44,662 nucleotides of DNA from a virus (Duplodnaviria; Caudoviricetes), in the IMG/VR virus record IMGVR_UViG_3300046698_000093, positions 1 to 44,662 of that record. The stretch is one strand, 5' to 3'. The notes beneath the pieces are model-generated. The model saw only the letters and a list, made by a program, of their open reading frames with translations. It did no database searches and had not been told where the DNA came from. Below, in pieces: positions 9,942 to 26,420 of this stretch. Position numbers and translations under genes: made by a program. How positions within the stretch are numbered: the stretch's first letter is position 1; each line of letters starts with the position of its first letter.

Positions 9942-10951
9942 TACCTTTCCTCCTGTGCTACTTGGGCCAGAGCCACGACGCGAAGGATCGCCTGATCGAA
10001 ATTCGGTTCGATGGTCGTAAAGTTCCGGCAGAATAGATGCTCGTTAAAGACACGCGGACTGGCGCAGAGGATCACGGGCTTCTTGAAACCGATTGCCGCG
10101 GCACCCATTTCCATGAGAGAGCCGATGGACTGACGGAATGGTTCGTAGGGGAAATGGGCGAGAACGCAATCGGATACTTTGATGTCCATTTCGTCCCTGC
10201 TGGCGATCTCCGGGGCGGCAAGCTGGCCCTTGTAGCTCAGACCTTGATTACTGACATCACTTCGAGTCTTGCCACGGAGGGGATTCAAAGTTCGTATACC
10301 ATACCGGGCGAAGTTGGCGGTCGCTATCTCCCGCCATTCGTAGTCGATCTCCTGACCAGTGATCGGCCCGCAGAGATAGACGGTGAAGGGCTTGCCGGTC
10401 AGGGGCATCGGTCCCTGTGTACCTTCGGGCACCCGGATCAAATGAATTAAGCCGCCAGGCCCGTATTGCACGGGGCCAGGAACCATCTTGATCGGTGCCC
10501 CGGCCGGGATATCTTCGGCGGCGAAAGCGCCAGTGCCATTGAAGGCGTCAAGGTCGGCCTTGATCTTGGCTTCTACCGACGCAGAACGGGCGACGTACTT
10601 GGGCATGTCGTCCAGCGAGGCAGGCAGGCGACCAGCCTTGATCTCCTCCTCGTAGTGGAGGATGAATCCGGCGTTAGTGCGGATCGCGGCCATGTGATCC
10701 TCGTCGGCTTTGCCCAACTTATAGGCTTCAAGATGCCGGGCAAGGGATGCCACACATTCAGATATGGGCATACCTGCTTCCCAGTTCCGGGGCCGGTACT
10801 TCTTGGCACCAAGGGCTAACCACGCGCCTTCACGGGTGTTAGCATGAGGGGAAATCAAGTCGGGTCGGGGCTTGAAGTCGCCCCGGTCTCTGACGGTCCC
10901 TGTTTCAAACTGTCGTCGTTCGCCACTGTCTTGCATGGTTGGTTCTTCCAT
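9941..10951 (-). CDS. Fusion of a dATP/dGTP diphosphohydrolase domain (DUF5664-type) and a nucleoside 2'-deoxyribosyltransferase/N-glycosidase domain
   Basis: N-terminal DSGERRQFETGTVRD...KPRPDLI...GAKKYRPRNWEAG...SLARHL...EDHMAA; C-terminal VYLCGPI...LNP...RDEMDIKVSDCVLA...IGSLMEMG...KPVI. The start may be 10936. Confidence 0.85.
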   Translation of the reverse strand: MEEPTMQDSGERRQFETGTVRDRGDFKPRPDLISPHANTREGAWLALGAKKYRPRNWEAGMPISECVASLARHLEAYKLGKADEDHMAAIRTNAGFILHYEEEIKAGRLPASLDDMPKYVARSASVEAKIKADLDAFNGTGAFAAEDIPAGAPIKMVPGPVQYGPGGLIHLIRVPEGTQGPMPLTGKPFTVYLCGPITGQEIDYEWREIATANFARYGIRTLNPLRGKTRSDVSNQGLSYKGQLAAPEIASRDEMDIKVSDCVLAHFPYEPFRQSIGSLMEMGAAAIGFKKPVILCASPRVFNEHLFCRNFTTIEPNFDQAILRVVALAQVAQEER

Positions 10952-11037
10952 TGTATCCTACTCCAGTTAGATTCCCACTTCTTTCTATCAACCGGCCGGG
11001 GACGATCCCCTTTGCCGTATGATGACGGTCCGTGCAT
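10855..11037 (-). CDS. Small phage protein (GKGDRPRPVDRKKWESNWSRI)
   Basis: TAATG-coupled to the primase stop; motif of a kind often seen in small phage ORFs. Confidence 0.55.
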   Translation of the reverse strand: MHGPSSYGKGDRPRPVDRKKWESNWSRIQWKNQPCKTVANDDSLKQGPSETGATSSPDPT

Positions 11038-13283
11038 TATCGTCTCCCCACCAGGTAGCGGTCCACCGCGTCCTGGGTCAGCTTCACACCTTGGAAACAT
11101 CGGGCTTGTTTGCCCTGAAATATCAAGCGATCTGCAATGATGCCAGGATGGGCCATGCAGAACCGCTGGCTGAACTTCGTGATTGTACCCGCGAATATGC
11201 CCTGATCCTTGCACCAGCGAGCGTAAGCATCGTAGATTGTGGACACCGGCACCTGGGCTTCGGACCCAAACTCACAATATTCATCGGCGAACTCACTCAC
11301 CGGCGAAGACTGTTTACGGAATTCTTCGATCACTGACTGTGAAGAAGCCGGTGCAGTGAAGCCTCCCCGCCGTAGTCTAAGCAATCCCTGGAGTGCCCAG
11401 ACTGCGATGCCTGGCGCTTCCTTGACGATCCTATCTTTGAGCCGCGTATCTTCTCGGCCGTAGAAGGATTCGCCGAAATGCAGGAGAAGCAGGCGTCGAT
11501 CAAGACTGCGTTCGTGGTCCGGTAGATCGGGCATCGAGTTGACGGAGATTGTAAACCGACACGACAGTTTGTGGTCCGAGAGGAACTCTTTGTTTTTGCG
11601 ATTGATACCGACTCCGTCCCGGCCTGAGATTTCTTTGAGGACTTGGAGGGCTTTCGAGGGGTCGCCCCGCTTGGTAATGTGAGCGTCAGGCAGGATAGCT
11701 GCGAGTTTTCCGAGGAGAGGCTGTAAGCCGAAATCCCCGACGAGCGTATCAAAACTTGTAGAAGCAACTTGAGGACTCCCGAGCATGGCCCGTAGAGCTT
11801 CAAGGACGGTTCCCTTTCCAGCCCCTGGCCGACCGATAAAGAACATGAGTTTTTCTTGGCTTGTGTCTGCAACCAAGTTGTATCCAAACCACTCTTGGAG
11901 AAGGGCAATTTTTTCTGGGTCATTTGGGAATACCTCTTGTAATAACTTCGTCCAGGTCGGGCACGTCGCCGCCGCGTGATATTCATAGGGCATCGCTGTC
12001 ATTGAAAAGAACTTCGGTGTCACCGGCTCTGGCGTCAAGTCCGGCAGCGTCAACCAACCATTCTTGAACACCACCATATCTTGAGGCTGGGCGTGTTCAT
12101 CGTCGTCCAACCAGCACGGAGCATCCTTATAGATCGGGCAGGTCATGGATAGGGCGTCGATGATGTCGCTTACTTCATGGGCATTTGCTTCAAACGGCGT
12201 GATCGTGACTTCACCTTTACTGTTGAACTTTTTGACGGTCTTGCCTTTGAGAAAGCTATACAAGTCACCCCGGAGGAAAGTGGCACTGTCCACTTTAGTA
12301 TACTTTGCCCCGTCAAATCTGTAGTAACTACTTGCATACTGTCGGAGAATCGGAAGCCCTTCAAGATAATGTCGCTCTCGTAACCAGCGATCCGCAATGG
12401 CAAGTGGGGCGGCTGATTCCAATAGGTCAGATGCACTTGTTGTGACACCCGCCATCTTGATCGCTTCTTCAAGGCCCGTTCGGTCAAGGCCAGATCGCAC
12501 CCAGGCCCGGAGGTCTTTGATCCCGTCCGGGGGCAGGAGCTTAACGACGCTCTTGCATTTAGATTTGAGGGTTTCATACGTCTTCTCCATGCCGAGGCGA
12601 CCAGTCCCGGCGTCATTCTCACCGATGACTACGACATCCCGACCGACTAGAAGATCGGCGAGGAAGGACATGCCTCCCGTCGCGGAGGGCTTTCCGACTC
12701 CTCCAAACCCCAGATCGTGAGCGGCGGCTGTGTCGGACTGCCCCTCAACGACAAGCACCGGCAGAGTGGAGGAGGCGAGAATTCCACCCCCAACTTTCGA
12801 CACGCGACCAGATGACTTACGTATATGCAGATAGCCTGCGTCACCCATTGGTCGAACTGCCCCTTCCGGGGTCCGTCCACATAGCACCGCTTGAGGATCG
12901 CTCGGGCACTCAGATGAGACCATACACCAATGGGTGCGTCCGCAGATTGGACAGGGATAGTCCTCCGAACATCGCGTCCAGTTGTGCGAGCCGGGGATGT
13001 ACTTTTCCGAGTCCGGGTTGTAGTCTTGCGAGATCGCATACGTGAGTCCTCTCTTGCCGCCTTTGATGTCGTATTTCTTACCATTCGGATAGCGTCGGAC
13101 TAGTCCAATGACCCGACCTTCGGCGTCCCGCTCGGGGAATACCCAGCACTCGTCAAGCGGAATCCAGCCGATCCCGATGGAATACAGGGCATCAGATGAC
13201 ACACCCAAGTCTTTCGCAAGGTGGGCGACCATCGCGGGCCACGCATTCTTCTGATAACTTATAAGGTCTTCGGTGAAGTCCAT
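11037..13283 (-). CDS. DNA primase-helicase (TOPRIM primase, Zn finger, D5/P4-alpha-like SF3 helicase)
   Basis: TOPRIM VLVVEGQSD...IGENDAG; CPICGRTHWC; D5-like PYEYHAAATCPTW...LLQEWFGY; Walker A GRPGAGKGT; winged-helix-like tail IYDAYARWC. Start placed at 13283 because the track start 13322 lies inside the tRNA-like element. Confidence 0.9.
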   Translation of the reverse strand: MDFTEDLISYQKNAWPAMVAHLAKDLGVSSDALYSIGIGWIPLDECWVFPERDAEGRVIGLVRRYPNGKKYDIKGGKRGLTYAISQDYNPDSEKYIPGSHNWTRCSEDYPCPICGRTHWCMVSSECPSDPQAVLCGRTPEGAVRPMGDAGYLHIRKSSGRVSKVGGGILASSTLPVLVVEGQSDTAAAHDLGFGGVGKPSATGGMSFLADLLVGRDVVVIGENDAGTGRLGMEKTYETLKSKCKSVVKLLPPDGIKDLRAWVRSGLDRTGLEEAIKMAGVTTSASDLLESAAPLAIADRWLRERHYLEGLPILRQYASSYYRFDGAKYTKVDSATFLRGDLYSFLKGKTVKKFNSKGEVTITPFEANAHEVSDIIDALSMTCPIYKDAPCWLDDDEHAQPQDMVVFKNGWLTLPDLTPEPVTPKFFSMTAMPYEYHAAATCPTWTKLLQEVFPNDPEKIALLQEWFGYNLVADTSQEKLMFFIGRPGAGKGTVLEALRAMLGSPQVASTSFDTLVGDFGLQPLLGKLAAILPDAHITKRGDPSKALQVLKEISGRDGVGINRKNKEFLSDHKLSCRFTISVNSMPDLPDHERSLDRRLLLLHFGESFYGREDTRLKDRIVKEAPGIAVWALQGLLRLRRGGFTAPASSQSVIEEFRKQSSPVSEFADEYCEFGSEAQVPVSTIYDAYARWCKDQGIFAGTITKFSQRFCMAHPGIIADRLIFQGKQARCFQGVKLTQDAVDRYLVGRR

Positions 13284-13295
13284 CGTATTCTCTAC

Positions 13296-13367
13296 GCTGC
13301 CATGCAGGACTCGAACCTGCATCTAGTTCCGAACGGGAACCATCCTACCAATTGGACGAATGGCAGC
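13296..13367 (-). tRNA. tRNA-like RNA / atypical tRNA (8-bp acceptor stem, 5-nt anticodon loop CGUUC, no encoded CCA)
   Basis: Minus strand reads GCTGCCAT TC GTCC-AATTGGTA-GGAT G GTTCC-CGTTC-GGAAC TAGAT GCAGG-TTCGAGT-CCTGC ATGGCAGC. Confidence 0.8.
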
Positions 13368-13382
13368 AAGGCGAAGGGCTAA

Positions 13383-13562
13383 CTACTTGAGCGGCCGACC
13401 AACCTTGCGGATCGTCTTGCCATGCTCAATGAGCACACGACGGATCACGACGACGTTGAAACCGTGGACATCGCCGATGATCTTCATGCCTACCCCGGCG
13501 TCGTATCGTTCGCATATCTTGCGAACCTGGGCCGGGGAAACTTCTCTACGTTGTCGTGACAT
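13383..13562 (-). CDS. Small helix-turn-helix DNA-binding protein
   Basis: ICERYDAGVGMKIIGDVHGFNVVVIRRVLIEHG...GRP pattern; GGAG RBS. Confidence 0.7.
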   Translation of the reverse strand: MSRQRREVSPAQVRKICERYDAGVGMKIIGDVHGFNVVVIRRVLIEHGKTIRKVGRPLK

Positions 13563-13577
13563 TGGATTCTCCAAAGA

Positions 13578-13638
13578 GTCCCGGCGACCCGGCCCGCCAG
13601 CACACACCGCTGGGCATTCGGGCCGGGGTTGGCCGGGC
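13578..13638 (-). promoter_or_regulatory. Long GC-rich intergenic hairpin (possible processing or stability site)
   Basis: CCCGGC/GCCGGG, CCGGCCCG/CGGGCCGG and CCAGC/GCTGG nested stems; no U tract. Confidence 0.55.
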
Positions 13639-13643
13639 GCAGG

Positions 13644-14501
13644 CTAGAACACGCTGACCTGGGCAAGCACGGCATTCTTGACCGTGAGCCAATCGGCCGA
13701 CGTGAATGCGTCCTCGGCCTTGCCGATCTTCGTTGCTTCGGCGATCCACACCTCGGCGAGCTTCTCGTCCGTGATATCCTTCTGCTTCAACTCGCTGACG
13801 CTGGCCCAGGCCGAGTCCTTGGTTTCAATGGTAGCGGGTGCAGTAGGAGTAACGACGGTTGGCACAGCCGGGGCCACAACCGTGGTAGGAGTAGTCCCGG
13901 CAACCGGAGGAGGGTTTGTCGCCGGTGCCTTCGCTTTCTGGCTCTTGGGCGGTGCCTTGACCTTGGCCGACGCCGGTGCCTTGGCGGGAACCGCTGCGAC
14001 CGTTGTACCTTGGAGTGCGCCGCCCAACTTGGCGGTCAGCCCGGCCAGTTTGGTCGCGTCGAACTTGGGCAATTGCTTCACGGGGTTCGCATCGGCGGTG
14101 TCGATCCACGAAACCTGGAGAGACTTCTGGCCATTGTATTCGTGGTCGTCCACGCGGAACAGGATCAAGGTTTCACTGGTCTTGAGGTCGGCGAGACCTT
14201 GGAAGTCCAGACCGTTCCAGCCGAAGACCTTCTTGATCTGCTTGGCGTTCAGGCATTCCTTCCAGCCGGTTTCGGATTTGTTGTCGGTGGTGAACAGCAC
14301 GAGGTAGGCCGTGATGTCCTGGTCGAAGTCGCCCCAGGCGACGTAGCCCGGCTCGTGGTTTCCGGTCAATTCGCCGTTGGCGTCATAGAATTCAAGGGCC
14401 TGAATCGTGGCAACCCATTGGGGGAAGCCATTGCGGGTTTCGGATACACCGTGATCCGTCACCTTGCCCCGGAACGTGCCGGGTCTGTCAATCGCATTCA
14501 T
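13644..14501 (-). CDS. Putative ssDNA-binding protein (DUF669-like OB fold with Pro/Ala linker)
   Basis: PGTFRGKVTDHGVSET N-terminus and HEYNGQKSLQVSWI; lies downstream of the Sak4-like ATPase and exonuclease. Confidence 0.6.
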   Translation of the reverse strand: MNAIDRPGTFRGKVTDHGVSETRNGFPQWVATIQALEFYDANGELTGNHEPGYVAWGDFDQDITAYLVLFTTDNKSETGWKECLNAKQIKKVFGWNGLDFQGLADLKTSETLILFRVDDHEYNGQKSLQVSWIDTADANPVKQLPKFDATKLAGLTAKLGGALQGTTVAAVPAKAPASAKVKAPPKSQKAKAPATNPPPVAGTTPTTVVAPAVPTVVTPTAPATIETKDSAWASVSELKQKDITDEKLAEVWIAEATKIGKAEDAFTSADWLTVKNAVLAQVSVF

Positions 14502-14543
14502 AGTTCTCTCCGTCCATTTAGGACTTGTAAAAGGTAGATATAC

Positions 14544-14571
14544 ATCTTACCACAATTGTTCGGGTTGTCAA
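14544..14571 (-). promoter_or_regulatory. Sigma70-type promoter
   Basis: TTGACA-16 nt-TAAGAT with a TG extension. Confidence 0.65.
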
Positions 14572-14574
14572 GAC

Positions 14575-14904
14575 CTAATCGCGAATAATTCCCACGATGT
14601 CTGTGATGTCGCACAGCGAACAGGCCACGCCGTCATCCAGGATGACCGGGTACGGGATCGTGCGGTTAGTCGCACCCCGGCCCTGCTGAACCTGGGTCAC
14701 ATGCTGGGCCAGCATGACGCGATCCCCAGTCCTGACATCCGGCGTGATCTGCTTACCGCCGTCCCACCGGCCAGGGCCGACCGCCCGCACGACGCCAGTG
14801 ACGAAGGTATCTCCGAAGCCATCAGGTAGAACCAGCCCACCCGGAGTCTTCTTGTTAGTTGGGTCCAGTACGACGGTGACGAACGCATGGATAGGACTGA
14901 ACAT
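14575..14904 (-). CDS. groES: GroES-like co-chaperonin
   Basis: KTPGGLVLP mobile loop; GVVRAVGPGR...DVRTGDRVML; C-terminal DIVGII. Confidence 0.85.
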   Translation of the reverse strand: MFSPIHAFVTVVLDPTNKKTPGGLVLPDGFGDTFVTGVVRAVGPGRWDGGKQITPDVRTGDRVMLAQHVTQVQQGRGATNRTIPYPVILDDGVACSLCDITDIVGIIRD

Positions 14905-15825
14905 TTACTTCTCCTCGGTTGGGAACAATATCTGCCACAGAGAATCATCGGCCGGGGTCTCGAACGAGATCACGGCGTCGGTTAGGGTCCGGGTCTTGGC
15001 GAAGTACGACGGGTCGGACGGCATGGTGAAGATCGCCCTAGTTGTGGCACCGCTGATCTTCCCGGCGTGATCCTTGACGTGCCCTTTGTTGTCCACTTCC
15101 GACCGGGCACCCGTCACCTGCTGGCTTATGTAGTCAATTTTGAATACATGGTCGGCCCACTCGCAGGCAAAGCCCCGCGTTGTGAAGGACTGCTTACTGT
15201 CCGGGCCGGGCGAGTAAAGCTTCGGCCCGTCCTGGAGATAGTTGCCGCCGCTGGCGTTGGCGATCACGACAGGGCATTGCTGGCAAAGCACCACAACGTT
15301 TTTGCCCTGCCGCACGAGGCCGTCCAGGTCCGAGAATACCAGCCGCATCACGTCGAACATGTGCTGGTAGCCCTTGCCGTAACCGTAGTCTTCGATCCGC
15401 TGGACGCGGCTGCCCTTCTCGTGGGGGATCGTGTCGATGACATTCTGCATGGCAAGAAGCTCCAGCATGGTGCCGGTGTCGATCACGACTGTCTTGGCGT
15501 CGGCGAATAGGCCGGGCTGGTGCAGGGCATCGCGGACATCCTGGAACGTTTCGACGCCGGGGATGCGGCGGATCGGTTCGCCTGTCTTGGGGTTGCGAAC
15601 CATTCGGCCGCCGTCGTCAAGCCCGATGAATACCGGGGCCGGGGCCATAGACGCCAGCGTGGTCTTGCCCTTGCCACTGGCCGCGTAGATGATGAACTTC
15701 TGGCCTTCGCCCTTGCCGTCCCAGGTTTCGACCTTGAAGGTCTTAGCGGGTTGCTTCTGGACCTGGGGTGCCGTCGGAGCCTTGGGGGGTAACTTCGTTT
15801 TGATCGGTGGGGGTAGCGGGGGCAT
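14905..15825 (-). CDS. AAA_24 / Sak4-like ATPase (recombinase)
   Basis: IYAASGKGKTTLAS Walker A, TVVIDT Walker B, GYGKGY, EWADHV, AKTR. Confidence 0.85.
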   Translation of the reverse strand: MPPLPPPIKTKLPPKAPTAPQVQKQPAKTFKVETWDGKGEGQKFIIYAASGKGKTTLASMAPAPVFIGLDDGGRMVRNPKTGEPIRRIPGVETFQDVRDALHQPGLFADAKTVVIDTGTMLELLAMQNVIDTIPHEKGSRVQRIEDYGYGKGYQHMFDVMRLVFSDLDGLVRQGKNVVVLCQQCPVVIANASGGNYLQDGPKLYSPGPDSKQSFTTRGFACEWADHVFKIDYISQQVTGARSEVDNKGHVKDHAGKISGATTRAIFTMPSDPSYFAKTRTLTDAVISFETPADDSLWQILFPTEEK

Positions 15826-16075
15826 TAGTTTTCTCCGGTTGGGTTATCGCACGTAAACTATGGTACAAGGTATCCACAGAACGAGACCAGGGTTCTTGAT
15901 CGTTCTCCAATTCCGATATAATGGTACGACATAGAAATAGTAGCCAACCACCCTCTAACGCACTATCCATATTACGAATAAGGTAGCCGAATTCTTCCGG
16001 TGTGATCTGTGGAAGATCAACACTAAACGAAGAAGTCGTATCGTCGCATTCGATTCTAAATTCCATATGTTCCAT
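15743..16075 (-). CDS. Hypothetical protein
   Basis: GAGG RBS before MEHMEFRIECDD; fills the gap between the exonuclease and the ATPase. Confidence 0.55.
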   Translation of the reverse strand: MEHMEFRIECDDTTSSFSVDLPQITPEEFGYLIRNMDSALEGGWLLFLCRTIISELENDQEPWSRSVDTLYHSLRAITQPEKTNAPATPTDQNEVTPQGSDGTPGPEATR

Positions 16076-16077
16076 GA

Positions 16078-17346
16078 TTATTCCTCGGTTGTTTCGGGTT
16101 GGGTTAGGACGACCGTAGCGTTTAAACGCTTGTATCCTGGGGGCACGGTCACGCCGTCGCAACAAGCGACGTTGTTGTAACAGATCGGACAGTACGAGCA
16201 CTTGAATGTAGCTTCACACTGGTTGCCGTTCTCGTACCAAAATCCGGTGCGTTCCATTTCAGCCATCATCTTCTGGAGTGCCCATATCTGGTACTCAAAG
16301 TTCTTGAGTTCGGCATCGGTAAAGGACACTTCGCGGACGGCAAAGTAAAACTCCGGGCGGGTCGTCATGTCCTGGAGGAGCCGGGCACCGAACATGCCGG
16401 GCGTTTCACGAATCGAATAGGGCACTGGACCCGAACTTCCGTCTTTGCGGGGTTTCGGTACGGCCCCAAACTCGAATTTGACGTTGAATCCGTCAACGGC
16501 TATCTCGCAGGGACCATAACCCGGAACGCCGTTAGACCCCATTGAAACAGTCGTAGCCACTAATTGTTCTATCTTGAACTTTTGCCCGCAGTAGTCACCA
16601 GTCCTGACAAATTCCGCGGATTCGGCCATCGTCAACTTGCTCGGTTTGATCGTCGGCTTGTGCCATACGTCGTGCAGTAGGCCGGAGACGAGCGGGGCAC
16701 CTTGACCACTGGCACCGGGTGTCGCCACGGCGGGACAGGTGCCCGCTTCCTGGAGATCACGCATCGCCAGGATGTAATACTTGCTCTGCACATCTTTGCG
16801 GAGCCGATCCCAGTAGCTTGAACCAGAGTCGATGGACTTCGAGCTTGACTTATGCTCGCCGATGAACAGGCGACCGCTGGCTTTGTGCCGCATGAGCCGG
16901 TCGATCTTGCCGATCCGCACAAAGGTCGGTGTCTTATGGCCAGTCTCCGGGTTCACCAGGGGTAGCTCAAATTCCATCTCCGTCGCCACAGTCTCGTATT
17001 CGCTAGAACCAGCGGGGTGTAACCAGTGGTAGGCGGCGAGGGAGTTGGCGATGATCTCCCGCTCGACGGCCCAATCAGTCGGGTCGGCGTAGTCAGGGAT
17101 CGTCGTGTAGATCGCGGTCGCGGCTTCGACAGCCCGCTCCAGCCGGGTGTCTTCTTCCTCCGGTGAGGCGGGAGGAGCTTCAAGTACCTCCAGCCCGGTG
17201 TGCCAAGCGGTGCCCATCCGGGGTGCCGCGTCATCGACGGCCTTGCTAAGCCCTTCCACGTAATGCAGGCGGTACCGGGTCGGGCAGGCAAGGAAGGCGG
17301 CGATGCTGGATGCTGATACGAACTTCTTTGTGCATGTTGTTTCCAT
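16078..17346 (-). CDS. PD-(D/E)XK exonuclease, Cas4/RecB/AddB-like with Fe-S cysteines
   Basis: SASSIAAFLACPTRY, GTAWH, EMEF, GKIDRL, EHKS, QSKYY, C-terminal CEATFKCSYCPIC. Confidence 0.85.
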   Translation of the reverse strand: METTCTKKFVSASSIAAFLACPTRYRLHYVEGLSKAVDDAAPRMGTAWHTGLEVLEAPPASPEEEDTRLERAVEAATAIYTTIPDYADPTDWAVEREIIANSLAAYHWLHPAGSSEYETVATEMEFELPLVNPETGHKTPTFVRIGKIDRLMRHKASGRLFIGEHKSSSKSIDSGSSYWDRLRKDVQSKYYILAMRDLQEAGTCPAVATPGASGQGAPLVSGLLHDVWHKPTIKPSKLTMAESAEFVRTGDYCGQKFKIEQLVATTVSMGSNGVPGYGPCEIAVDGFNVKFEFGAVPKPRKDGSSGPVPYSIRETPGMFGARLLQDMTTRPEFYFAVREVSFTDAELKNFEYQIWALQKMMAEMERTGFWYENGNQCEATFKCSYCPICYNNVACCDGVTVPPGYKRLNATVVLTQPETTEE

Positions 17347-17347
17347 A

Positions 17348-17566
17348 TTATTCCCATTCCAAGGACAGGGTACCGTTAGCAGCTTGTTGGGCGCACAATA
17401 GACGCACGAGGGCGAGGAGGTCTTCCCGGTCAAATTCTGTGATTTCCATAGTTCGCCAAGTAACTTCAGAGGGAACTCCAGAAATCATGGGGGGCACCCT
17501 GAATTTATCCAGGGCCTTCTTTAGTACTTCCTTATATGTCAATGCGCCACAATGCGGGCAACTCAT
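17348..17566 (-). CDS. Hypothetical protein with CxxC
   Basis: GAGG RBS; directly downstream of a promoter. Confidence 0.6.
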   Translation of the reverse strand: MSCPHCGALTYKEVLKKALDKFRVPPMISGVPSEVTWRTMEITEFDREDLLALVRLLCAQQAANGTLSLEWE

Positions 17567-17587
17567 AAAACCTCACTTGTTAAAACC

Positions 17588-17615
17588 AGTATACCAGAAT
17601 TGTTTTATTTGTCAA
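17588..17615 (-). promoter_or_regulatory. Sigma70-type promoter for the recombination genes
   Basis: TTGACA-16 nt-TATACT with a TG extension. Confidence 0.7.
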
Positions 17616-17993
17616 TCACAAATTCAAATATTGATCGACAAAATCCGCTAGTGAATCCGCTAGGATGTACCAGCCTCCGGCATCCTGAATCTTCCGCTGC
17701 ATCTGTACTTGGTCATCGCGCTGCCGCCCACCCGGAGCCTTGCATTCGACCCCCAGGAATCGCCCACCGGGGATCAAACATGTCAGGTCGGGCCATCCAG
17801 CCGGGATGCCGCAGCCCATCCCTAGGCCCATGCGATTCAGGATACCAGCATCGGTGACTGCCAAGACGACGCCACGACTAATCAGCCATACCGCGATAGC
17901 CTTCTGGATTTTTGCTTCCGGCTTCTTGTTGCGTCGGCGTTGGGGGAGGCGATCTGTCACGATGGGATTGTAGAGTTCATCTTCAAGGGTCAT
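17616..17993 (-). CDS. VRR-NUC domain nuclease (Holliday junction resolvase-like)
   Basis: EAKIQKAI...GWPDL...GVECKAPGG...Q. Confidence 0.85.
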   Translation of the reverse strand: MTLEDELYNPIVTDRLPQRRRNKKPEAKIQKAIAVWLISRGVVLAVTDAGILNRMGLGMGCGIPAGWPDLTCLIPGGRFLGVECKAPGGRQRDDQVQMQRKIQDAGGWYILADSLADFVDQYLNL

Positions 17994-18208
17994 TGAAACC
18001 TCCTATCATACCGGCCCCGCCAGCCAGCCATCCAGCAGGCCCAGGCCGGGGTATCTAGTTCGTGAGGGCAGTTCACGGGGCTATCGCCCGCATCGAATGC
18101 CTTGGCCCCCCGGAAGGCTTCACCCCACCGGGTGCCCGCTTTGGCCGCATCGCGGGCGTCGATCATCTTCCGCCGAAGGCGGTTTACATATACCGGAGGG
18201 CGTCCCAT
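17990..18208 (-). CDS. Rmf/CrpP-fold-like small protein
   Basis: GAKAFDAGDSPVNCPH...WMAGW matches the Rmf-like pattern G..A...G.....CP(Y/H).......W..GW. Confidence 0.6.
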   Translation of the reverse strand: MGRPPVYVNRLRRKMIDARDAAKAGTRWGEAFRGAKAFDAGDSPVNCPHELDTPAWACWMAGWRGRYDRRFQ

Positions 18209-18435
18209 CGTCTGAGTCCTCGGCCCGTCCATGAACCGTCTAGTCTGCCTATCAGAGTTTCGATTTCGTCTAGGGTCATCGGTGGATGATCCTTGAACCG
18301 GGCCTGCACAAGCGGGTTGACGTGGGGCGGAATCTCGTCTCGGGCGACCGCGTTCTCCAGCCACTTGCCCCATGTACGAAGGGCGGCACAGACCTGGGCG
18401 GTCTCGCGGGGCGTGAGTTTATGCTTTTGGGCCAC
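18184..18435 (-). CDS. Hypothetical phage protein
   Basis: GTG start; LTPRETAQVCAALRTW...LDEIETL. Confidence 0.6.
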   Translation of the reverse strand: MAQKHKLTPRETAQVCAALRTWGKWLENAVARDEIPPHVNPLVQARFKDHPPMTLDEIETLIGRLDGSWTGRGLRRWDALRYM

Positions 18436-18637
18436 AGTCCACCAAGCCTTCCCGGGCAACGATTCGGCGGCGGAGTTCTTCCTGCTTCTCCGCGAGGGTG
18501 CCAGAAATTTCGGGGCACTGAATGCGCCCGTGGTGCGTCGGCGAACTATCCACCCGCCACTCCACATAATATGTAGGATCAGTACCGGGCCGCAATTTGT
18601 CGTACATAGGTTGTGTCGCGTATTCGAGTATTATCAT
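18419..18637 (-). CDS. Hypothetical protein
   Basis: ATGA coupling and GAGG RBS. Confidence 0.55.
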   Translation of the reverse strand: MIILEYATQPMYDKLRPGTDPTYYVEWRVDSSPTHHGRIQCPEISGTLAEKQEELRRRIVAREGLVDCGPKA

Positions 18638-18912
18638 GTTCGATCCTCGCGAACCGATGCCACCAGTAGGCCGACATAGGAGAACCACTTCTCTTGCTCC
18701 ACATCTTCGCCGCGATGAATGGCGAACGCAGTTAAATACGCCAAAGCATAGTGGTCTAACAAATGGGCGTCGTCCACGTAAACTCGCTTGGGGGTCCTGT
18801 GAACTTCTTCGTCCATCATCCCATGTATATACCCGGAGAGGAACCGGGGTGTCCAGTGTGGGTGTGCCAACTTTAACTTCTGGTACGCCGCCTCTTGCTC
18901 AACATTAGTCAT
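18634..18912 (-). CDS. Hypothetical protein
   Basis: Start overlaps the polymerase stop. Confidence 0.6.
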   Translation of the reverse strand: MTNVEQEAAYQKLKLAHPHWTPRFLSGYIHGMMDEEVHRTPKRVYVDDAHLLDHYALAYLTAFAIHRGEDVEQEKWFSYVGLLVASVREDRT

Positions 18913-20932
18913 ATCTTGATCCTATGGTTGCATCCACGTTAAGGGGCCAGCCTGTTGCCCACGCGGGCACGGTCTTCAAGGCGTCCGTCACACAAGCAAA
19001 CGCCAATGTCTGTTGTTCGGTTGGCGTTGCTACTACTATACTATCATGCACGTGGAATGCAACCCTAAATCCGTGATCTTCGCAAAATAAAATCGCGCCG
19101 GCTAGGATATCGCGGGACATCGCTTGTACACAATTTTCGGTTAGGGTGCCGCCGTAGAGTTTTCCCCACTGGTAGCCAAGCTGGTTGTCTCGGTCGATGC
19201 CAGCGTGGGGGTAGAATAGTGCCCGACCAGAGGGCAATCGGAGCACGACAGTTGATCCGTCCTTAGACAGCGATAAGCCCCGCAGGGTTTGGGGTTGGCC
19301 ATAACGCACCACGTATCTGAATGTATTTTCAATATCGGTCCAGAACTTAGGAACCATCCGATATGTGTTCCGGTAAATATCCACATACCGCTTGCACTCA
19401 GTTAAGTTTACTTGACCGGAGATCACAAAGGGCCGACCGTCTGGGTCTTCTTCTATAGATTCCAGCAGCCGATTGTGCCCCATACCATATCCTAGACCGA
19501 GAATACACTTTTTGCCGATGAACCGTCGCCCATATAAAAGCTTGTGGACCGGAGGTGGGTCATCTTTTTTGGGTTTTCGGCATGGGGCGGCGAAGGCTAT
19601 TTCGGCAAAGGCCGAATATATATCGCGATCCTCGCGGAACGCCTGAAGCAAGTCTTCTTGCCCCGCAATCCACGCCACGCCACGAGCCTCGATTTGCGCA
19701 GCGTCCGCGAGGATCAGAACATGCCCCTCCGGGGCGACCAGGCAGTGTTTGATCTCTACTTGCAAGCCCTTACCCCGTGTAGGTAAATTCTGGAGATTCA
19801 TGCCCTCGCCGCCCGACCAGCGACCCGTACTGGCACCGTAATAATTCAAGGGTATGGGCAATCGCCCACCGTTGGCCTTGGCCTGGGCAGACATCGACTT
19901 GATACGCTTGATATGGAGCGGGGTTGATTTCACGGTCTGCCGAGCAGCAATCAGGGCACGGACGCGGGGGTTGCGGTGTCTCTTGAGTTCTGCCAACGCG
20001 GAATCATCTTTTGCGAGTGCGGCGATCAGTTCCTTCTTACCCTGTTTCATCGGGACAACTTCGCCCGTCTCCGCAAGGGCAGCACCAAGTAAGGCGCAAT
20101 AGCTTTTGTCGCCGCTGATCTCCTTGACGGCGATTCCTACAGGCATATCCTTGGCGACCTGGGCCTCCATCCTGGCGGCTAGGTCGGCGGCAAGTTTGGA
20201 ATCAAATTCCAAATCAGAATCCCAGAACAGCCGAAGGGTATGAGCGGCCAGCCGAAGTTCGACTTCAGGCCGCGTCAGGCGGGGCAGGAGAAGGGCAAAG
20301 GCGTCCATCTCCCTCTCGGCGTCATTGTTCGCGTAGGAAGCCAGAGCCGTCTTCTGATCGTCGGTCATATCAGCCCAATGCAATCCCTCGAATTGCATCG
20401 TGTCACCCTTGGGCGGCAGTCCCAGGCGTTCGCAGATCACGCGGAGGTTGTGCTGGTTCCGGGCGTCTAAGTGCCTTGATAAAGCAAGGACATCCACGAC
20501 GTATGAAAGGGCAATACCATGCTTTCGTTTCAGAATTGTACCATCGAAACGAGCATTCTGAATCACTACGGTAGCACCTTCCAGATTCTTGCCGTATTGA
20601 CTTTGCAACCATGAGATTTGTTCCTCAGTGTTATGCCAGAAGGTAGACTGGCGAGGGGCAAAGGGTTGACCGTCTGGAATCACCAAACAGGCAACCCCCA
20701 ACTCCTCATAGTGGGGGGACATCACGTATTCTACCGTACTCAAGGAACCGGTCTTGCGGCCCATATGATATTGTTTGGAAAAGAAACACTCGAAATCGAG
20801 CACGACGATCTCGGTCGGCCAACCCGCGTCCTTCAATACGGAAGACCAGCCTGCCCCGACGTTGACCGGCCCAGGTGGAGGTTGTACCTGGGAGGGAGGT
20901 ATGGTCGGGAGGTTCGGGGCAGGCTTGGCCAT
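18905..20932 (-). CDS. Family A DNA polymerase with 3'-5' exonuclease
   Basis: ExoI LDFE, ExoII NARFD, ExoIII YANND; TGRWSG, NLQNLP; motif A DAAQIEAR; motif B RFIGKKCILGLGYG; motif C HVHDS. Confidence 0.95.
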   Translation of the reverse strand: MAKPAPNLPTIPPSQVQPPPGPVNVGAGWSSVLKDAGWPTEIVVLDFECFFSKQYHMGRKTGSLSTVEYVMSPHYEELGVACLVIPDGQPFAPRQSTFWHNTEEQISWLQSQYGKNLEGATVVIQNARFDGTILKRKHGIALSYVVDVLALSRHLDARNQHNLRVICERLGLPPKGDTMQFEGLHWADMTDDQKTALASYANNDAEREMDAFALLLPRLTRPEVELRLAAHTLRLFWDSDLEFDSKLAADLAARMEAQVAKDMPVGIAVKEISGDKSYCALLGAALAETGEVVPMKQGKKELIAALAKDDSALAELKRHRNPRVRALIAARQTVKSTPLHIKRIKSMSAQAKANGGRLPIPLNYYGASTGRWSGGEGMNLQNLPTRGKGLQVEIKHCLVAPEGHVLILADAAQIEARGVAWIAGQEDLLQAFREDRDIYSAFAEIAFAAPCRKPKKDDPPPVHKLLYGRRFIGKKCILGLGYGMGHNRLLESIEEDPDGRPFVISGQVNLTECKRYVDIYRNTYRMVPKFWTDIENTFRYVVRYGQPQTLRGLSLSKDGSTVVLRLPSGRALFYPHAGIDRDNQLGYQWGKLYGGTLTENCVQAMSRDILAGAILFCEDHGFRVAFHVHDSIVVATPTEQQTLAFACVTDALKTVPAWATGWPLNVDATIGSRYD

Positions 20933-20933
20933 G

Positions 20934-21206
20934 TTATTTCTTTTCCAATTTATCGGCTTGCAAAGCTACAAGGCGTTCAAATTGCCTTAGAAGATTGACG
21001 ACTTGTGCCTGTAGTTCTCCGCACCTTTGCTCCGCAGTGTGACTCCGATTGTTAGCGGCGTCGGTATCGGCAGAACACCGAGCGAGTTCCCTTACAGCCT
21101 GATTCCACTTTGTTTCAAGTTGGGCATTTTCCGCCCGTAGAGTAGTGTTGATCTGCCGGTATCTTGCCAAGGCAAGCTCATGCTGATTCTTGATAGAGAG
21201 TTTCAT
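20934..21206 (-). CDS. Coiled-coil hypothetical protein
   Basis: GAGG RBS; heptad-like sequence. Confidence 0.6.
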   Translation of the reverse strand: MKLSIKNQHELALARYRQINTTLRAENAQLETKWNQAVRELARCSADTDAANNRSHTAEQRCGELQAQVVNLLRQFERLVALQADKLEKK

Positions 21207-21592
21207 TTCTTTTCCTCGAAATCGGCAACCCAACCGACGCCGGGTTCGCCCACGATGCGATAGTCCCGCCCAACCAGCCGCTCGGCCTCGGCCACTACCG
21301 GCTCCAGGTCTTTGACGACGGCGTGGACGCGGATCATGCTGATCGCCTGTACGACCTTCGCCACGAGAATGCTCGTGCAGGTCGGGTGGTCGGCCCGACC
21401 CGTCAGTCCGATTTGCGGCAGGTCTTTGTGCTCGTTGTTCAGGCAGTCCAGCAGGACCGAAAACTTCTGTCGTGCAGCGGGGTCCGCTGAGGTCTGCATC
21501 TGGCCGCAGATGATCGTTCTTAGCCGCTGGACATATTTGCTTGGCTTGCCATCATCTTTGCGATCCGGCAATGCCGGGGGTGCTTCTACCAT
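21203..21592 (-). CDS. Hypothetical protein
   Basis: GGAG RBS before MVEAPPALP; downstream of promoter 21629-21656. Confidence 0.65.
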   Translation of the reverse strand: MVEAPPALPDRKDDGKPSKYVQRLRTIICGQMQTSADPAARQKFSVLLDCLNNEHKDLPQIGLTGRADHPTCTSILVAKVVQAISMIRVHAVVKDLEPVVAEAERLVGRDYRIVGEPGVGWVADFEEKK

Positions 21593-21628
21593 TGTATTCT
21601 CCAATAAAGTTCGATGCGTTACGCAGTT

Positions 21629-21656
21629 ATTGTACCAAAAGTTCATCCAGTGTCAA
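21629..21656 (-). promoter_or_regulatory. Sigma70-type promoter for the polymerase operon
   Basis: TTGACA-16 nt-TACAAT with a TG extension. Confidence 0.7.
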
Positions 21657-21657
21657 G

Positions 21658-21960
21658 TTAAATCCGTCCGGGGAATGCGATTTCAACTTGGAGTTTTCGT
21701 CCGTCCGACAGGATCAGGAACGCGGAATAGTTGCCTCCTGAATCCTTGCAACAATCACGGGCTTCCTTGAGATCGGTGATAAACTTGTGAAGTGCCTGGG
21801 GAGCATTGCACCGCACCCGCAGAAATTTAGGCTTGGCCGGGCCGTCTACTTTTTGCCCACAGCATAAGACCGGGGCAGGCATAGAAGGCATCGAAACGCC
21901 GGGGGTGGTGAACTTGCCAGTCTTTACGTTGAACGGTGCGAGGGTCGGGGGGTTACTCAT
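21658..21960 (-). CDS. Hypothetical protein
   Basis: ATGA coupling; AAGGAGG RBS. Confidence 0.6.
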   Translation of the reverse strand: MSNPPTLAPFNVKTGKFTTPGVSMPSMPAPVLCCGQKVDGPAKPKFLRVRCNAPQALHKFITDLKEARDCCKDSGGNYSAFLILSDGRKLQVEIAFPGRI

Positions 21961-22568
21961 TTGCAAGCCTCCTTCGCTATCGTGACCAAGTCAAATTTAG
22001 CCGCCCCAGCCGCCCAAGCCGCCGCCTCAGCTGCCGCCTCAGCCGCCCAAGCCGCCGCCCCAGCCGCCTCAGCCGCCGCCTCAGCCGCCCAAGCCGCCGC
22101 CTCAGCCGCCCAAGCCGCCCGCGCCGCCCCAGCCGCCGCCTCAGCCGCCGCCTCAGCCGCCTCGGGTGAACGGTCTTCACCAGATAGCCAAGCATCGGCC
22201 CACTTATTCCAAAGAGGGTTCGCACAGATTTTTTTGCCACAGAGTATCGCGAACCTCGCGACTTGCTCTGGCGTGATTTGGGGCATAGGAATACGATGGA
22301 GCGTCCTACCGTTTCGACACCCTACTTTCGAACCGCAATCATTTTTCTCTACGGTGCCTCGCCCCTCCCACAGATGAGCGGTTGCGAGATCAAAGTTACA
22401 ATGTAGCGGGTTTAGGAGCACCGCAAGTAGTGGATGAGTATACCAGTGCGTGAATCCCGGTCCGCACAATTCGCCCTCGCCGGATGTATTATGGGTCACA
22501 CCTGGACCCCATTGACATTTGTTGTACGTTTGGTCGTTTTGATCCGTTAGTTTGTATAGCTTATTCAC
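21957..22568 (-). CDS. Phage protein with an Ala-rich (AAEAAAWAA) C-terminal repeat
   Basis: GGAGG RBS and GTG start; YKLTDQ...GELCGPGFTHWY N-domain; GCC-rich repeats at about 22000-22162. Confidence 0.7.
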   Translation of the reverse strand: MNKLYKLTDQNDQTYNKCQWGPGVTHNTSGEGELCGPGFTHWYTHPLLAVLLNPLHCNFDLATAHLWEGRGTVEKNDCGSKVGCRNGRTLHRIPMPQITPEQVARFAILCGKKICANPLWNKWADAWLSGEDRSPEAAEAAAEAAAGAARAAWAAEAAAWAAEAAAEAAGAAAWAAEAAAEAAAWAAGAAKFDLVTIAKEACK

Positions 22569-22746
22569 TGTCCACCTCCAAGTCGTCGCCGGGTCGTCGG
22601 ACCGAGGCAACAGCGATCTTGAGCCGGATGTGGGCACCGCAGCCGGTCCACTTGCCCGCCGCGTCCCATCGGTTGGCGACCCACACGATCCGCCCGCCTG
22701 TCAATTCACGACGGCGGATTTCGGGATACGCTATCACATTTCCCAT
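22561..22746 (-). CDS. Hypothetical protein
   Basis: GGAGG RBS. Confidence 0.55.
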   Translation of the reverse strand: MGNVIAYPEIRRRELTGGRIVWVANRWDAAGKWTGCGAHIRLKIAVASVRRPGDDLEVDSE

Positions 22747-23203
22747 GCTACATGCCTCCAACTCTTGCCATTGGTTACTTGCTGAATTGCCGCCTTGCTA
22801 ACTCCGAACCATCGGGCCAGAAAACGCCACGAAACCCCCGTGCGTGGGCACCCCGACATAATCTAACAATGTCTTCCGTCAACTTTGCGGCACCCATCTT
22901 CTCGCCTTTCGCTTGTCTATTTTTCTTATCCCGGTCGGCATCGTTATCTGCCCTAGTTCCTAACCATAAATGAATCGGATTCACACAAGCCGGGTTGTCA
23001 CAAGCATGGCATACACACATACCAAAAGGAATGGAACCGTAGGTTAGAATCCAAGCCCGACGATGAGCCATGATAGGGTGCCCATGTAACTTGGACCGAC
23101 CGTAACCGGCAGGGTCTTTATACAATTGCCAATTCCAGCAGCCATTAGCCGCTATCATGTAATGGTGTCCATTTCGGAACGGTTTTGTTACTAGCCTACC
23201 CAT
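22734..23203 (-). CDS. HNH homing endonuclease with its C-terminal HTH split off by a frameshift at 22835-22839
   Basis: GCWNW...GYG...AHRRAW...VCHACDNPACVNPIHLWLGTRADNDAD...AKLTEDIV. The zero frame stops at 22775; the -1 frame gives VSWRFLARWFGVSKAAIQQVTNGKSWRHV. Confidence 0.85.
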
Positions 23204-23372
23204 TGTAATACTCCGCACAAAGGCCATCGCAGAATTGCTGGTCCGGAGCTTCCGGCACGAATTCACGGCCGCATTCCGGGCATTCCCGCGTGTGGTCTTT
23301 CCAGGCGTCGGGGCACCCGTGCTCGTGACACATAACGCCGTTAATCATCAACGCTCGACAATGCTTGCACAT
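23196..23372 (-). CDS. Small Cys-rich (Zn-binding) phage protein
   Basis: CKHC..MINGVMCHEHGCP...CPECG...FCDGLC; GGAGGT RBS. Confidence 0.7.
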   Translation of the reverse strand: MCKHCRALMINGVMCHEHGCPDAWKDHTRECPECGREFVPEAPDQQFCDGLCAEYYNG

Positions 23373-23384
23373 TTTTGCACCTCC

Positions 23385-23475
23385 AGGGCACCATGCCCAA
23401 AGGGACTCCGAGGAGTTACACCCCGGAATGGCCGACTGAAAGGAGCGAAAGATCGGCCTCTGCGCTGGCATCCCT
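23385..23475 (-). ncRNA. Structured intergenic three-way junction with a T-loop-like hairpin
   Basis: TTCCGGGG-TGTAACT-CCTCGGAG hairpin, GGCCGAT/GTCGGCC hairpin, and closing stem AGGGATGCCA/TGGTGCCCT. Confidence 0.55.
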
Positions 23476-23480
23476 AAGAA

Positions 23481-24089
23481 TTATCCGAGGTCTTTGGCGG
23501 TGCCGAAGACCTTGGCGGTGCCGAAGACCTCGGCGTTGCCGGAGACCCTGGCGTTGCCGAAGACCCTGGCGTTGCCGGAGACCCCGGCGTAGCCGAAGAC
23601 CTTGGCGGTGCCGAAGACCTCGGCGTTGCCGGAGACCCCGGCGTTGCCGAAGACCCTGGCGTTGCCGGAGACCCCGGCGTAGCCGAAGACCTTGGCGTTG
23701 CCGAAGACCTCGGCGTTGCCGAAGACCCTGGCGTCGCCGGAGACCCCGGCGTTGCCGAAGACCTCGGCGTTGTCGAAGACCCTGGCGTTGCCGGAGACCT
23801 CGGCGTTGCCGAAGACCCTGGCGTTGCCGGAGACCCCGGCGTTGCCGAAGACCTCGGCGTTGTCGAAGACCCTGGCGTTGCCGAAGACCTCGGCGTTGCC
23901 GGAGACCCTGGCGTTGCCGAAGACCTTGGCGAAAAAACCCACAAAAACAGTTTTGTCCACTATCGCGGTGTCAGCTACTAAACCACCACCGTTACAATGA
24001 CGATGGTATTTAACGCCGTCAATTGTAATGGCAGTGCCCTTGACTATTATTCCCATATCTTCGGGCCATCTTGCATACTTGATTTTCAT
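23481..24089 (-). CDS. Hexapeptide-repeat (left-handed beta-helix) protein
   Basis: HRHCNGGGLVADTAIVD leader followed by more than 20 V(F/S)G(N/D/T/Y)A(R/E/K/G) units; GGAGGT RBS. Confidence 0.85.
   Translation of the reverse strand: MKIKYARWPEDMGIIVKGTAITIDGVKYHRHCNGGGLVADTAIVDKTVFVGFFAKVFGNARVSGNAEVFGNARVFDNAEVFGNAGVSGNARVFGNAEVSGNARVFDNAEVFGNAGVSGDARVFGNAEVFGNAKVFGYAGVSGNARVFGNAGVSGNAEVFGTAKVFGYAGVSGNARVFGNARVSGNAEVFGTAKVFGTAKDLG
23490..23932. repeat. 18-nt degenerate coding tandem repeat
   Basis: GGCGTTGCCG(A/G)AGACCNN units with no spacers. Confidence 0.95.
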
Positions 24090-24118
24090 GCTTGCACCTC
24101 CAAGCCACTATCGGCTAA

Positions 24119-24167
24119 TCCTACGGCGGGGGGTTGCACCCCGCCTCACGGCGTAACCCGTGTAGGA
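24119..24167 (-). ncRNA. Minimal tRNA-like element (T-arm stacked on a closing stem)
   Basis: TCCTAC ACGG-GTTACG-CCGT GA GGCGGGG-TGCAACC-CCCCGCC GTAGGA; all three stems are perfect Watson-Crick. Confidence 0.6.
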
Positions 24168-24183
24168 CACAAATCGGCCCGCG

Positions 24184-24354
24184 TTAGCGGACCGGAGCAT
24201 CAACCAGCTTGCCGCCGCGTAGCACTTGAGCCTTGACAGGCGGCAGGTCCACCGGATCGGTTTTTGAATACGTCTTGAATGGAGCCTGCGGGTTGCCCAT
24301 TCCACCGAAACGACTCTTGACGGATTCTTTCATCTTGATCGGATTCAGGTTCAT
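24184..24354 (-). CDS. Small hypothetical protein (56 aa, MNLNPIKMKESVKSRFGG...)
   Basis: Not in the ORF track; GGAGGT RBS; directly downstream of tandem promoters. Confidence 0.7.
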   Translation of the reverse strand: MNLNPIKMKESVKSRFGGMGNPQAPFKTYSKTDPVDLPPVKAQVLRGGKLVDAPVR

Positions 24355-24395: not shown

Positions 24396-24447
24396 AGCAT
24401 AAGCGTAGTTTACCACGAAAGCAAATAATTGTCAAGACAATTATTTG
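24396..24447 (-). promoter_or_regulatory. Tandem sigma70 promoters with an overlapping palindromic operator
   Basis: TTGACA-17-TAAACT (24407-24435) and TTGCTT-17-TATGCT (24396-24424); perfect inverted repeat CAAATAATTGTC-NN-GACAATTATTTG (24422-24447). Confidence 0.75.
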
Positions 24448-24789: not shown

Positions 24790-24831
24790 GTTTTACCGGA
24801 CAAAGCAAATAATTGTCAAGAGAATTATTTG
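24790..24831 (-). promoter_or_regulatory. Second copy of the palindromic operator overlapping a TTGACA promoter element
   Basis: CAAATAATTGTC-AA-GAGAATTATTTG (24806-24831), one mismatch from the 24422 copy; the -10 element is weak (TAAAAC). Confidence 0.6.
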
Positions 24832-25979: not shown

Positions 25980-26008
25980 AATGTAGCATATTACTGTAAG
26001 GCTGTCAA
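25980..26008 (-). promoter_or_regulatory. Sigma70-type early promoter
   Basis: TTGACA-17 nt-TACATT with a TG extension. Confidence 0.65.
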
Positions 26009-26013
26009 GAGTA

Positions 26014-26325
26014 AACCTTACGGGTAAGGAAAATAACATGGGGTAAGGTCGAATGAGCAAACCCCTTGAAACAAGCTATTTACTGTTATTATCTCTGTTA
26101 TCTATTCTAATAAAGGAGTAGGACTATAGAGAAGACCTTACCCCCCTTACGGGTAATACTTATTCTACGGACGGAGACAGCAAATTGGGGGGGGTAATAG
26201 GGGTAATATCGGGTAAAGTAGGGGCAAAAGTGCCAAATATGGGGGGTTTTTGCATAAATGAGTATTACCCTAATAAGGGGGGGTAATACCGCTTTTTGGG
26301 CTTACCGTAATATTAGGGTAATACA
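26014..26325. repeat. Non-coding GGGTAA/TTACCC iteron cluster, candidate replication origin
   Basis: GGGTAA at 26022, 26041, 26151, 26192, 26201, 26211, 26281 and 26316; TTACCC at 26138 and 26265; AT-rich patch at about 26077-26114. Confidence 0.6.
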
Positions 26326-26420
26326 GGCCGCACAAAAACTGCGCAACTACACAAATAGTGTTGCCAAACGTCAACATGGTGGTGTGACGCCCGTTTGACC
26401 GGTGTCCCCCGCTCGCGAGC

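Follow-up and report, generated by a model that had tools for sequence, protein, structure and literature searches.

Why should pieces of transfer RNA (tRNA) architecture stand between the protein-coding genes of a bacteriophage? The question arises from a 44.7-kb virus record (Duplodnaviria; Caudoviricetes; IMG/VR IMGVR_UViG_3300046698_000093; completeness estimate 93%), which was analysed over its full 44,662 nucleotides, hereafter the window, and in which three minus-strand spacers carry hairpins with a T-loop. The initial annotation had located these hairpins and proposed, as a hypothesis, that they are tRNA-mimic punctuation of the early transcripts. All three are in place, with the loops TTCGAGT (13315-13309), TGTAACT (23420-23414) and TGCAACC (24138-24132), and we refer to the structures around them as elements 1, 2 and 3. 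Our analysis indicates that they point to a real family of anticodon-less tRNA shells, maintained by selection at gene boundaries. The case is strongest for element 1; elements 2 and 3 likely belong to the family too, on indirect support.

We examined how unusual these hairpins are within the genome. T-loop-consensus loops closing at least 7 pairs occur exactly three times on the two strands together, at these positions, against a mean of 0.31 in 100 local dinucleotide shuffles, none of which reached three; note that the 7-pair cut-off was chosen post hoc, with the data already seen. At a threshold of at least 5 pairs the excess is weaker, with six seen for 2.3 expected and 6 of the 100 shuffles reaching six. 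The placement before the next gene was described correctly, the 3′ ends of elements 1, 2 and 3 lying 12, 28 and 29 nt from the following ATG, and so were the 13-bp stacks of elements 1 (8+5) and 3 (6+7); a stack can also be drawn for element 2 (5+8, counting G-U pairs).

What had been overlooked is that element 1 (13296..13367, minus strand) is a whole tRNA-derived cloverleaf and not just a hairpin junction. It scores 44.3 bits against the Rfam tRNA model RF00005 (cut-off 29) in a targeted scan, a scan of the whole window having missed it; ARAGORN also calls it a tRNA, labelled tRNA-Asn, and its folding z-score is −3.7. The acceptor has 7 bp plus one extra G-C pair with no CCA encoded, the D arm carries G18-G19 and the T arm has the loop TTCGAGT. 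A canonical anticodon loop has 7 nt, with U33 and a purine at 37; here the arm at that place has 5 bp and its loop just 5 nt, so element 1 is unable to decode. Its U8-C9-GUC start resembles that of tRNA-Glu. A near-canonical tRNA-Glu(UUC) with a flawed T stem was observed at 1501-1572 of locus L271, ~50 nt past an HTH-like (helix-turn-helix-like) gene, and it is possibly an early stage of element 1.

Covariation, which the initial annotation had named as a check, was found for the element-1 type in the acceptor and T stems and in the elbow. Across 16 aligned cloverleaf types from relatives, 11 of the 13 acceptor and T pairs have changed on both sides, with 88.9% of cells paired, and none of 500 shuffles reached the covariation score of the alignment; as the rows were picked for having stems and have several tRNA origins, this test is biased in favour. 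Two further tests lean less that way. Among six sister pairs, 12 stem pairs have changed, of which 10 are still paired (7 via double changes) and 2 are unpaired at the terminal position. The elbow, parsed without requiring GG, joins the T-loop UUC to a D-loop GG in all 19 of the 19 family rows, some of which are duplicates or genuine tRNAs. UGC is matched by AG in 2 of 2 family rows, of which one is a genuine tRNA-Ala, and, for other viruses, in 22 of 24 rows. In L018, UGG stands with a loop containing AC, and between L181 and L186, whose primases are almost identical, GG/UUC has been exchanged for AG/UGC.

The anticodon arm behaves in another way. Its loops have 3-8 nt, or the arm is absent (L025) or replaced by 60-110 nt, and its length differs in five of the six sister pairs, once going from 21 to 110 nt around an identical acceptor. 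Picking hairpins by position gave 28, 26 of them with a stacked acceptor-like stem, L020 and the first L124 row being dropped as chance; a near-normal 7-nt anticodon loop is present in one of these 26 elements and an encoded CCA in none. As stems and elbow compensate while the anticodon arm changes freely, the shape is selected for a non-decoding role, and selection on the tRNA shape is thus supported for the element-1 type. The aligned cloverleaf elements share no common acceptor sequence or discriminator. Nor are the 13 bp a common property: the extra pair occurs in only 7 of the 16 aligned elements, so the idea of a 13-bp ruler was dropped. A longer acceptor was likewise rejected as a distinguishing mark, at least 8 bp being found in 12/26 elements and 8/23 genuine tRNAs, with no clear difference.

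These data bear on a further alternative, in which the elements have no present function and are remnants of tRNA genes in decay or of attachment sites. Ordinary tRNAs do occur in the family, a relative (L211) lies near a tRNA-Arg in a Planctomycetota chromosome, and integration is known to leave tRNA fragments (PMC9897764; here and below, literature comparisons rest on excerpts of the cited papers). Against this, decay would have to be limited to the anticodon arm while stems and elbow compensate and whole D arms are retained; neither a tyrosine (PF00589) nor a serine (PF07508) integrase was found in any of five records, the window and four relatives, and element 1 keeps the entire cloverleaf, where an attachment-site copy would be a 3′ fragment. 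For the element-1 type the elbow and sister-pair results largely refute such a relic, which we regard as highly improbable.

We then asked where the elements are located. Element 1 begins 15 nt past the stop of a small HTH gene (13383..13562, minus strand; 59 amino acids, three helices, relatives passing Pfam HTH_58), and just a weak Shine-Dalgarno-like word separates it from the ATG of the primase-helicase gene (11037..13283, minus strand). Upstream lies a gene of 285 amino acids (13644..14501, minus strand) that has no family match and that we call SSB-like (single-stranded DNA-binding-like) from its position; it is the second site after which relatives carry elements. Behind the HTH stop, 15 of 25 distinct loci have a T hairpin; the proportion is 13/98 for the SSB-like stop and 3/503 rows for the stops of seven other marker genes. 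The HTH gene is without an element in the other 10 of its 25 loci, two of which have a variant T-loop or a near-canonical tRNA. In L025, L081, L141 and L149 the HTH gene has been relocated before the polymerase and the element has been relocated along with it. The elements thus occupy gene boundaries across the family, in line with the early-transcript placement first proposed. A link to the primase itself was rejected, as the element tracks the HTH gene before the polymerase and most primase leaders have none. An RNA-binding role of the HTH protein was also set aside, its model being of the usual three-helix HTH type and yielding no fold match at E 0.001.

Primase searches yielded 127 distinct upstream regions. 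The primase tree excludes fragments that reach less than 6 kb upstream, save L125 and L126. On it, an element is present within 10 kb upstream in 26 of 69 rows, including all 8 of the 8 rows of the window's clade, and the element label requires 10 changes against 21 in shuffles. With a descriptor made of a T-loop hairpin, a stacked closing stem and an inner hairpin, the 151 loci yielded 44 junctions out of 60 distinct T hairpins; the junction counts were 4, 3 and 6 in three shuffles and 7, 7, 2 and 6 with four decoy loops. Note that the 44 include 3 genuine tRNAs (Asp, His and Ala) and that ~5 are expected by chance. The nearest ATG or GTG opening 35 codons lies at most 24 nt away in 23 of the 26 position-defined elements and at most 14 nt away in 16, distances that come from an automatic call with at least one error (L124, not a true start).

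A wider pattern scan had 73 distinct hits, in 80 of 121 loci, and 48 of them were junctions; they comprise tRNAs, transfer-messenger RNAs (tmRNAs) and small unnamed junctions, so T-loop junctions extend beyond the family of the window. Ordinary tRNAs (Asp, Ser, His, Ala and Glu) were present in 4 of the 43 virus records searched. Several single loci deserve description. L321 (4642-6713, minus strand; genome G026) packs four T-loop junctions, all different, into 2.1 kb of small genes, with a genuine tRNA-Asp and tRNA-Ser on the opposite strand of the region. L124 (9620-9810) has a tandem pair of tRNA-like elements ahead of the primase, the second with a variant T-loop and a long insert. L339 and L340 (~940-1030 in match orientation) contain a tRNA-sized RNA with a G3-U70-type acceptor, a TGCAACC loop and an encoded CCA; it lacks an anticodon arm and resembles a free tRNA-like domain of tmRNA, ARAGORN being silent on it, and L369, L403, L394, L411 and L417 look similar.

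What could such shells do? The t-elements, which are without an anticodon arm or a normal D arm, direct cuts of the RNase P and RNase Z type (PMC5499578; PMC1920247), and they have served to release RNAs in an archaeon (PMC6546412). We favour the reading that the phage elements are counterparts of the plant mitochondrial t-elements, i.e. cut marks for the tRNA-processing machinery of the host, RNase P in particular, and we hold it to have about an even chance of being correct. RNase P and RNase Z recognise the elbow and the acceptor (PMC4919913), and cut marks are favoured because the acceptor, T arm and elbow that are kept are both the readout of these enzymes and characteristic of t-elements. 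Like the plant elements (Forner et al, 2007; PMC1920247), those described here are degenerate tRNAs that keep the T arm and acceptor, have lost the anticodon or D arm and adjoin protein genes; their position is on the sense strand and intergenic. They differ in their bacteriophage setting, in lying often 1-24 nt from the next start and in their elbow covariation. The hallmark of t-elements is that their ends coincide with the ends of messenger RNAs (mRNAs), and the phage elements are known here from sequence, the cleavage being what we infer.

Under this reading, the 5′ foot of the acceptor stem would be the cleavage site of host RNase P, and an enzyme that trims 3′ ends would act behind the stem. 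The cut would separate the HTH (or SSB-like) message from the primase message and remove a stable fold from the primase start region, whereby the stability and translation of the two message parts could be set separately; the side product would be a small, free RNA of tRNA shape. If host RNase P does cut phage mRNA here, the tRNA punctuation of protein-coding transcripts known from organelles would exist in phages as well.

The candidate host follows from the primase: its best full-length relatives in cellular genome records are mostly in Planctomycetota bins, with one Phycisphaerales chromosome and one Neptuniibacter bin, and on these grounds we take the host to be probably a planctomycete. 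RNase P RNA is present in 3/3 candidate-host genomes. Several observations weigh against cut marks. RNase Z was above its curated cut-off in none of the same three genomes, the host itself being a prediction. On the primase tree, 43 of the 69 family rows are without an element within 10 kb upstream of the primase, so the element is dispensable. The shortage of Shine-Dalgarno sites in primase genes behind elements, 6/12 against 66/98, is not significant (p 0.33). The missing CCA, which could have marked an action in cis only, is uninformative, as 14 of 16 sampled candidate-host tRNAs also have no encoded CCA. Tight packing with a strong promoter upstream would equally suit an RNA acting after its release. 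Lastly, elements 2 and 3 are no more than likely members of the family of element 1, as the covariance model of the cloverleaf types does not detect them (E 7.3 and 2, respectively), and the small loop of element 3 has no AG to dock on the T-loop.

RNA data were available as assembled contigs from 8 of 10 listed peat metatranscriptome runs, and these cover the early region in part. No contig end falls at a predicted site, although contigs cannot show true ends. Contig X1 (13328-13756) reads 40 nt past the predicted RNase P site of element 1. In element 3, three contigs belonging to two studies break off at 24158-24160, 8-10 nt into the element; other places have common stops as well, e.g. 21428-21431. 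A t-element would be expected to be co-transcribed with protein genes, and one RNA-library contig runs from the HTH gene into element 1, DNA in the library being possible. As contigs cannot show ends, these data speak neither for nor against cutting. The contig that spans the 5′ boundary of element 1 would fit an explanation in which the fold, very stable, stays uncut within an intact mRNA. There it would be a barrier that keeps 3′ decay from the upstream message, and it would damp or gate how the next gene is translated. Such a fold would overlap the region needed by the ribosome before the start in the 16 elements at most 14 nt from it, and element-less primase leaders are often structured as well (z < −2 in 32/94, against 12/112 coding controls). 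A plain hairpin would suffice for this role, which leaves the kept elbow contacts and the gapless stack on a 5-bp T stem unexplained, and a tRNA-shaped RNA with a 7-bp acceptor is usually a substrate of RNase P, as for the M. smegmatis YrlA RNA (PMC4201824); we consider the uncut fold distinctly unlikely.

Cleavage and function can also be combined differently. Once excised, the element might have its function in trans: lacking an anticodon but mimicking a tRNA, it would decoy enzymes of tRNA-targeting defence or other host proteins that bind the elbow, with the cut in the mRNA incidental; note that the same cuts are predicted by this explanation and by cut marks. Conservation of elbow and acceptor with a free anticodon arm would fit a decoy, and element 1 sits behind a sigma-70-type promoter-like site (14544..14571, minus strand; consensus match) that lies upstream of the run of SSB-like gene, HTH gene, element 1 and primase. 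YrlA RNAs provide a precedent, being trans-acting tRNA mimics carried by phages and bacteria (Chen et al, 2014; PMC4201824). They share with the phage elements the mimicry of D arm, T arm and acceptor without decoding, are also phage-borne and in one case are cut by RNase P (PMC4201824). In contrast to the phage elements, which keep the tRNA order, YrlA is permuted and lies beside a Ro60 gene, and no such gene (TROVE) was found in any of 5 records. A decoy does not account for the fixed place after two particular genes and directly ahead of start codons, nor for the absence of a common acceptor sequence or discriminator, and RNAs whose middle arms vary from 8 to 110 nt would be ill suited as a uniform decoy; in the literature listing on decoys, we found no such RNA described. 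We therefore judge an action in trans unlikely.

Elements 2 and 3 are more compact. Element 3 (24119..24167, minus strand) is a three-way junction upstream of ATG 24089, with a 6-bp closing stem, a 4-bp hairpin and a 7-bp stem bearing the T-loop (z −2.7). The core of element 2 (23401..23475, minus strand) is made of a 5-bp closing stem, a 6-bp arm with a 17-nt C/U-rich loop holding CUCCUU, and an 8-bp stem bearing the T-loop. Its z-score of −1.3 is the weakest of the three folds and becomes −2.15 when an extra hairpin, included in the coordinates of the initial annotation, is counted; this small hairpin (23386..23398, minus strand) fills the gap from element 2 to the GGAGG that precedes the following gene (ATG 23372) and permits an alternative longer fold with element 2. 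Neither element has a tRNA match with ARAGORN or Rfam, and it is by shape alone that they may be read as cut marks.

Some counterparts were found elsewhere. Genome G002 (L011 18882-18784) has an early element like element 2, with the same loop type and a 7+6 stack, and the alignment score of the two was matched by 1 of 300 shuffles. Genome G003 has a T-loop junction behind a weak homolog (E 0.49) of the gene preceding element 3, the place being probably equivalent. The layout of element 3 recurs directly after a stop in an unrelated virus (L337), and UGCAA loops are found in genuine phage tRNAs and tmRNAs. The compact junctions aligned poorly with one another.

C4 and CI are antisense repressors in temperate phages. 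By analogy, the tRNA shell could be a scaffold that stabilises an antisense loop, an explanation that fits element 2 best: C/U-rich CUCCUU loops, complementary to Shine-Dalgarno words, occur in three early-region elements (element 2 and those of G002 and G003), the two best own-genome matches of the G003 loop are ribosome-binding sites with which it can form 9-nt pairings, and several relatives have long inserts in place of the anticodon arm. The G003 junction lies at L009 4708-4776, and the matched sites belong to two early genes ~2.5 kb upstream. On the other side, the best match of the element-2 loop in its own genome covers 9 nt on the non-coding strand, with other genomes matching equally or better, and own-genome antisense targets of the window elements were rejected, none going beyond chance; moreover, most element-1 types have no loop to display. 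C4 (P1/P7), CI (P4) and M3 (phi80) are, like the elements, small structured RNAs in phage transcripts, cut by host RNase P (PMC11143913; PMC5499578). They have no T-loop (PMC5499578), and in the phage elements there is no Rfam match of the C4 type and no convincing target. A scaffold of this kind is in our view improbable.

A broader version of the cut-mark reading would take the elements as domesticated tRNA genes turned into a modular processing cassette, with a shell opened by RNase P and a swappable cargo slot in place of the anticodon arm, filled in some by an anti-Shine-Dalgarno loop. We advance it as a tentative and rather doubtful possibility. If true, early mRNAs would be split and activated, giving near-leaderless primase messages in several lineages, and a t-element of the bacterial world would be combined with a natural tRNA scaffold. 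In nature the forms grade from a near-normal tRNA-Glu, by way of 49-nt junctions, to RNAs of 160 nt, a series that would show which features the enzymes require. Phage pseudo-tRNAs are commonly taken for debris or mis-called by annotation tools.

How do the elements compare with other tRNA-like RNAs? Element 1 resembles a canonical phage tRNA in its acceptor, D and T arms and in scoring above the RF00005 cut-off; it differs by its 5-nt loop, and its relatives by loops of 3-8 nt, no arm or long inserts, and cannot decode. A catalogue of tRNA-like molecules of T-even phages reportedly exists. Allo-tRNAs and irregular tRNA polycistrons (Mukai et al, 2017; PMC5389517) are also non-canonical, in part charged but unused in translation and in part phage-borne; they have 8/4 or 9/3 branches and anticodon loops, whereas the element-1 type has 5-bp T stems and no such loop, and elements 2 and 3 have T stems of 7-8 bp. 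The pseudo-tRNA of kayfunaviruses (Petrzik et al, 2021; PMC8402661) is likewise predicted and shares its place in several lytic phages; it belongs to a different phage family and, in the excerpts available, is only annotated, with no structure or function given. Besides this annotation, we found no description of t-element-like folds in phage mRNA in full-text searches that covered few subscription papers. Candidates for tRNA-like molecules in viral genomes have been catalogued (PMC10690425), and the supplementary motif tables of that work may include these folds. Rfam searches of the window and of 16 and 20 related loci gave, beyond tRNA (and tmRNA in other viruses), sub-threshold matches only, most of which fall in an 18-nt repeat gene.

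This repeat gene (23481-24089) lies between elements 3 and 2, element 2 beginning 5 nt past its stop; its 18-nt tandem repeat codes for a YdcK-type beta-solenoid, and it has no match in close relatives by tblastn. A terminator-like hairpin (24175..24194, minus strand; pattern match) covers the stop of a gene of 56 amino acids, 7 nt before element 3, and a sigma-70-type promoter-like site (24407..24435, minus strand; consensus match) would transcribe elements 3 and 2. Two near-identical, near-palindromic 30-nt boxes (24418-24447 and 24802-24831) lie over promoter-like sites and are candidate operators, perhaps for the HTH protein.

As for the phage itself, the minus strand encodes polymerase, primase-helicase, exonuclease and Sak4-like genes and the plus strand the terminase and portal genes. 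Among 974 matching phage records, none from a cultured phage covers 80% of the window primase. A GroES-like co-chaperonin gene is located within the replication module (14575-14904). At 9941-10951, a dATP/dGTP diphosphohydrolase domain is fused to a nucleoside deoxyribosyltransferase domain, with a phosphoesterase adjoining, which hints at a modified base in the DNA. The stretch 26000-26400, where the two gene arms meet, is gene-free and A+T-rich, with short repeated words and inverted repeats, and looks origin-like. Both ends of the record (1-221 and 44473-44662) carry 114-nt repeat units, so that the assembly probably broke within a tandem repeat.

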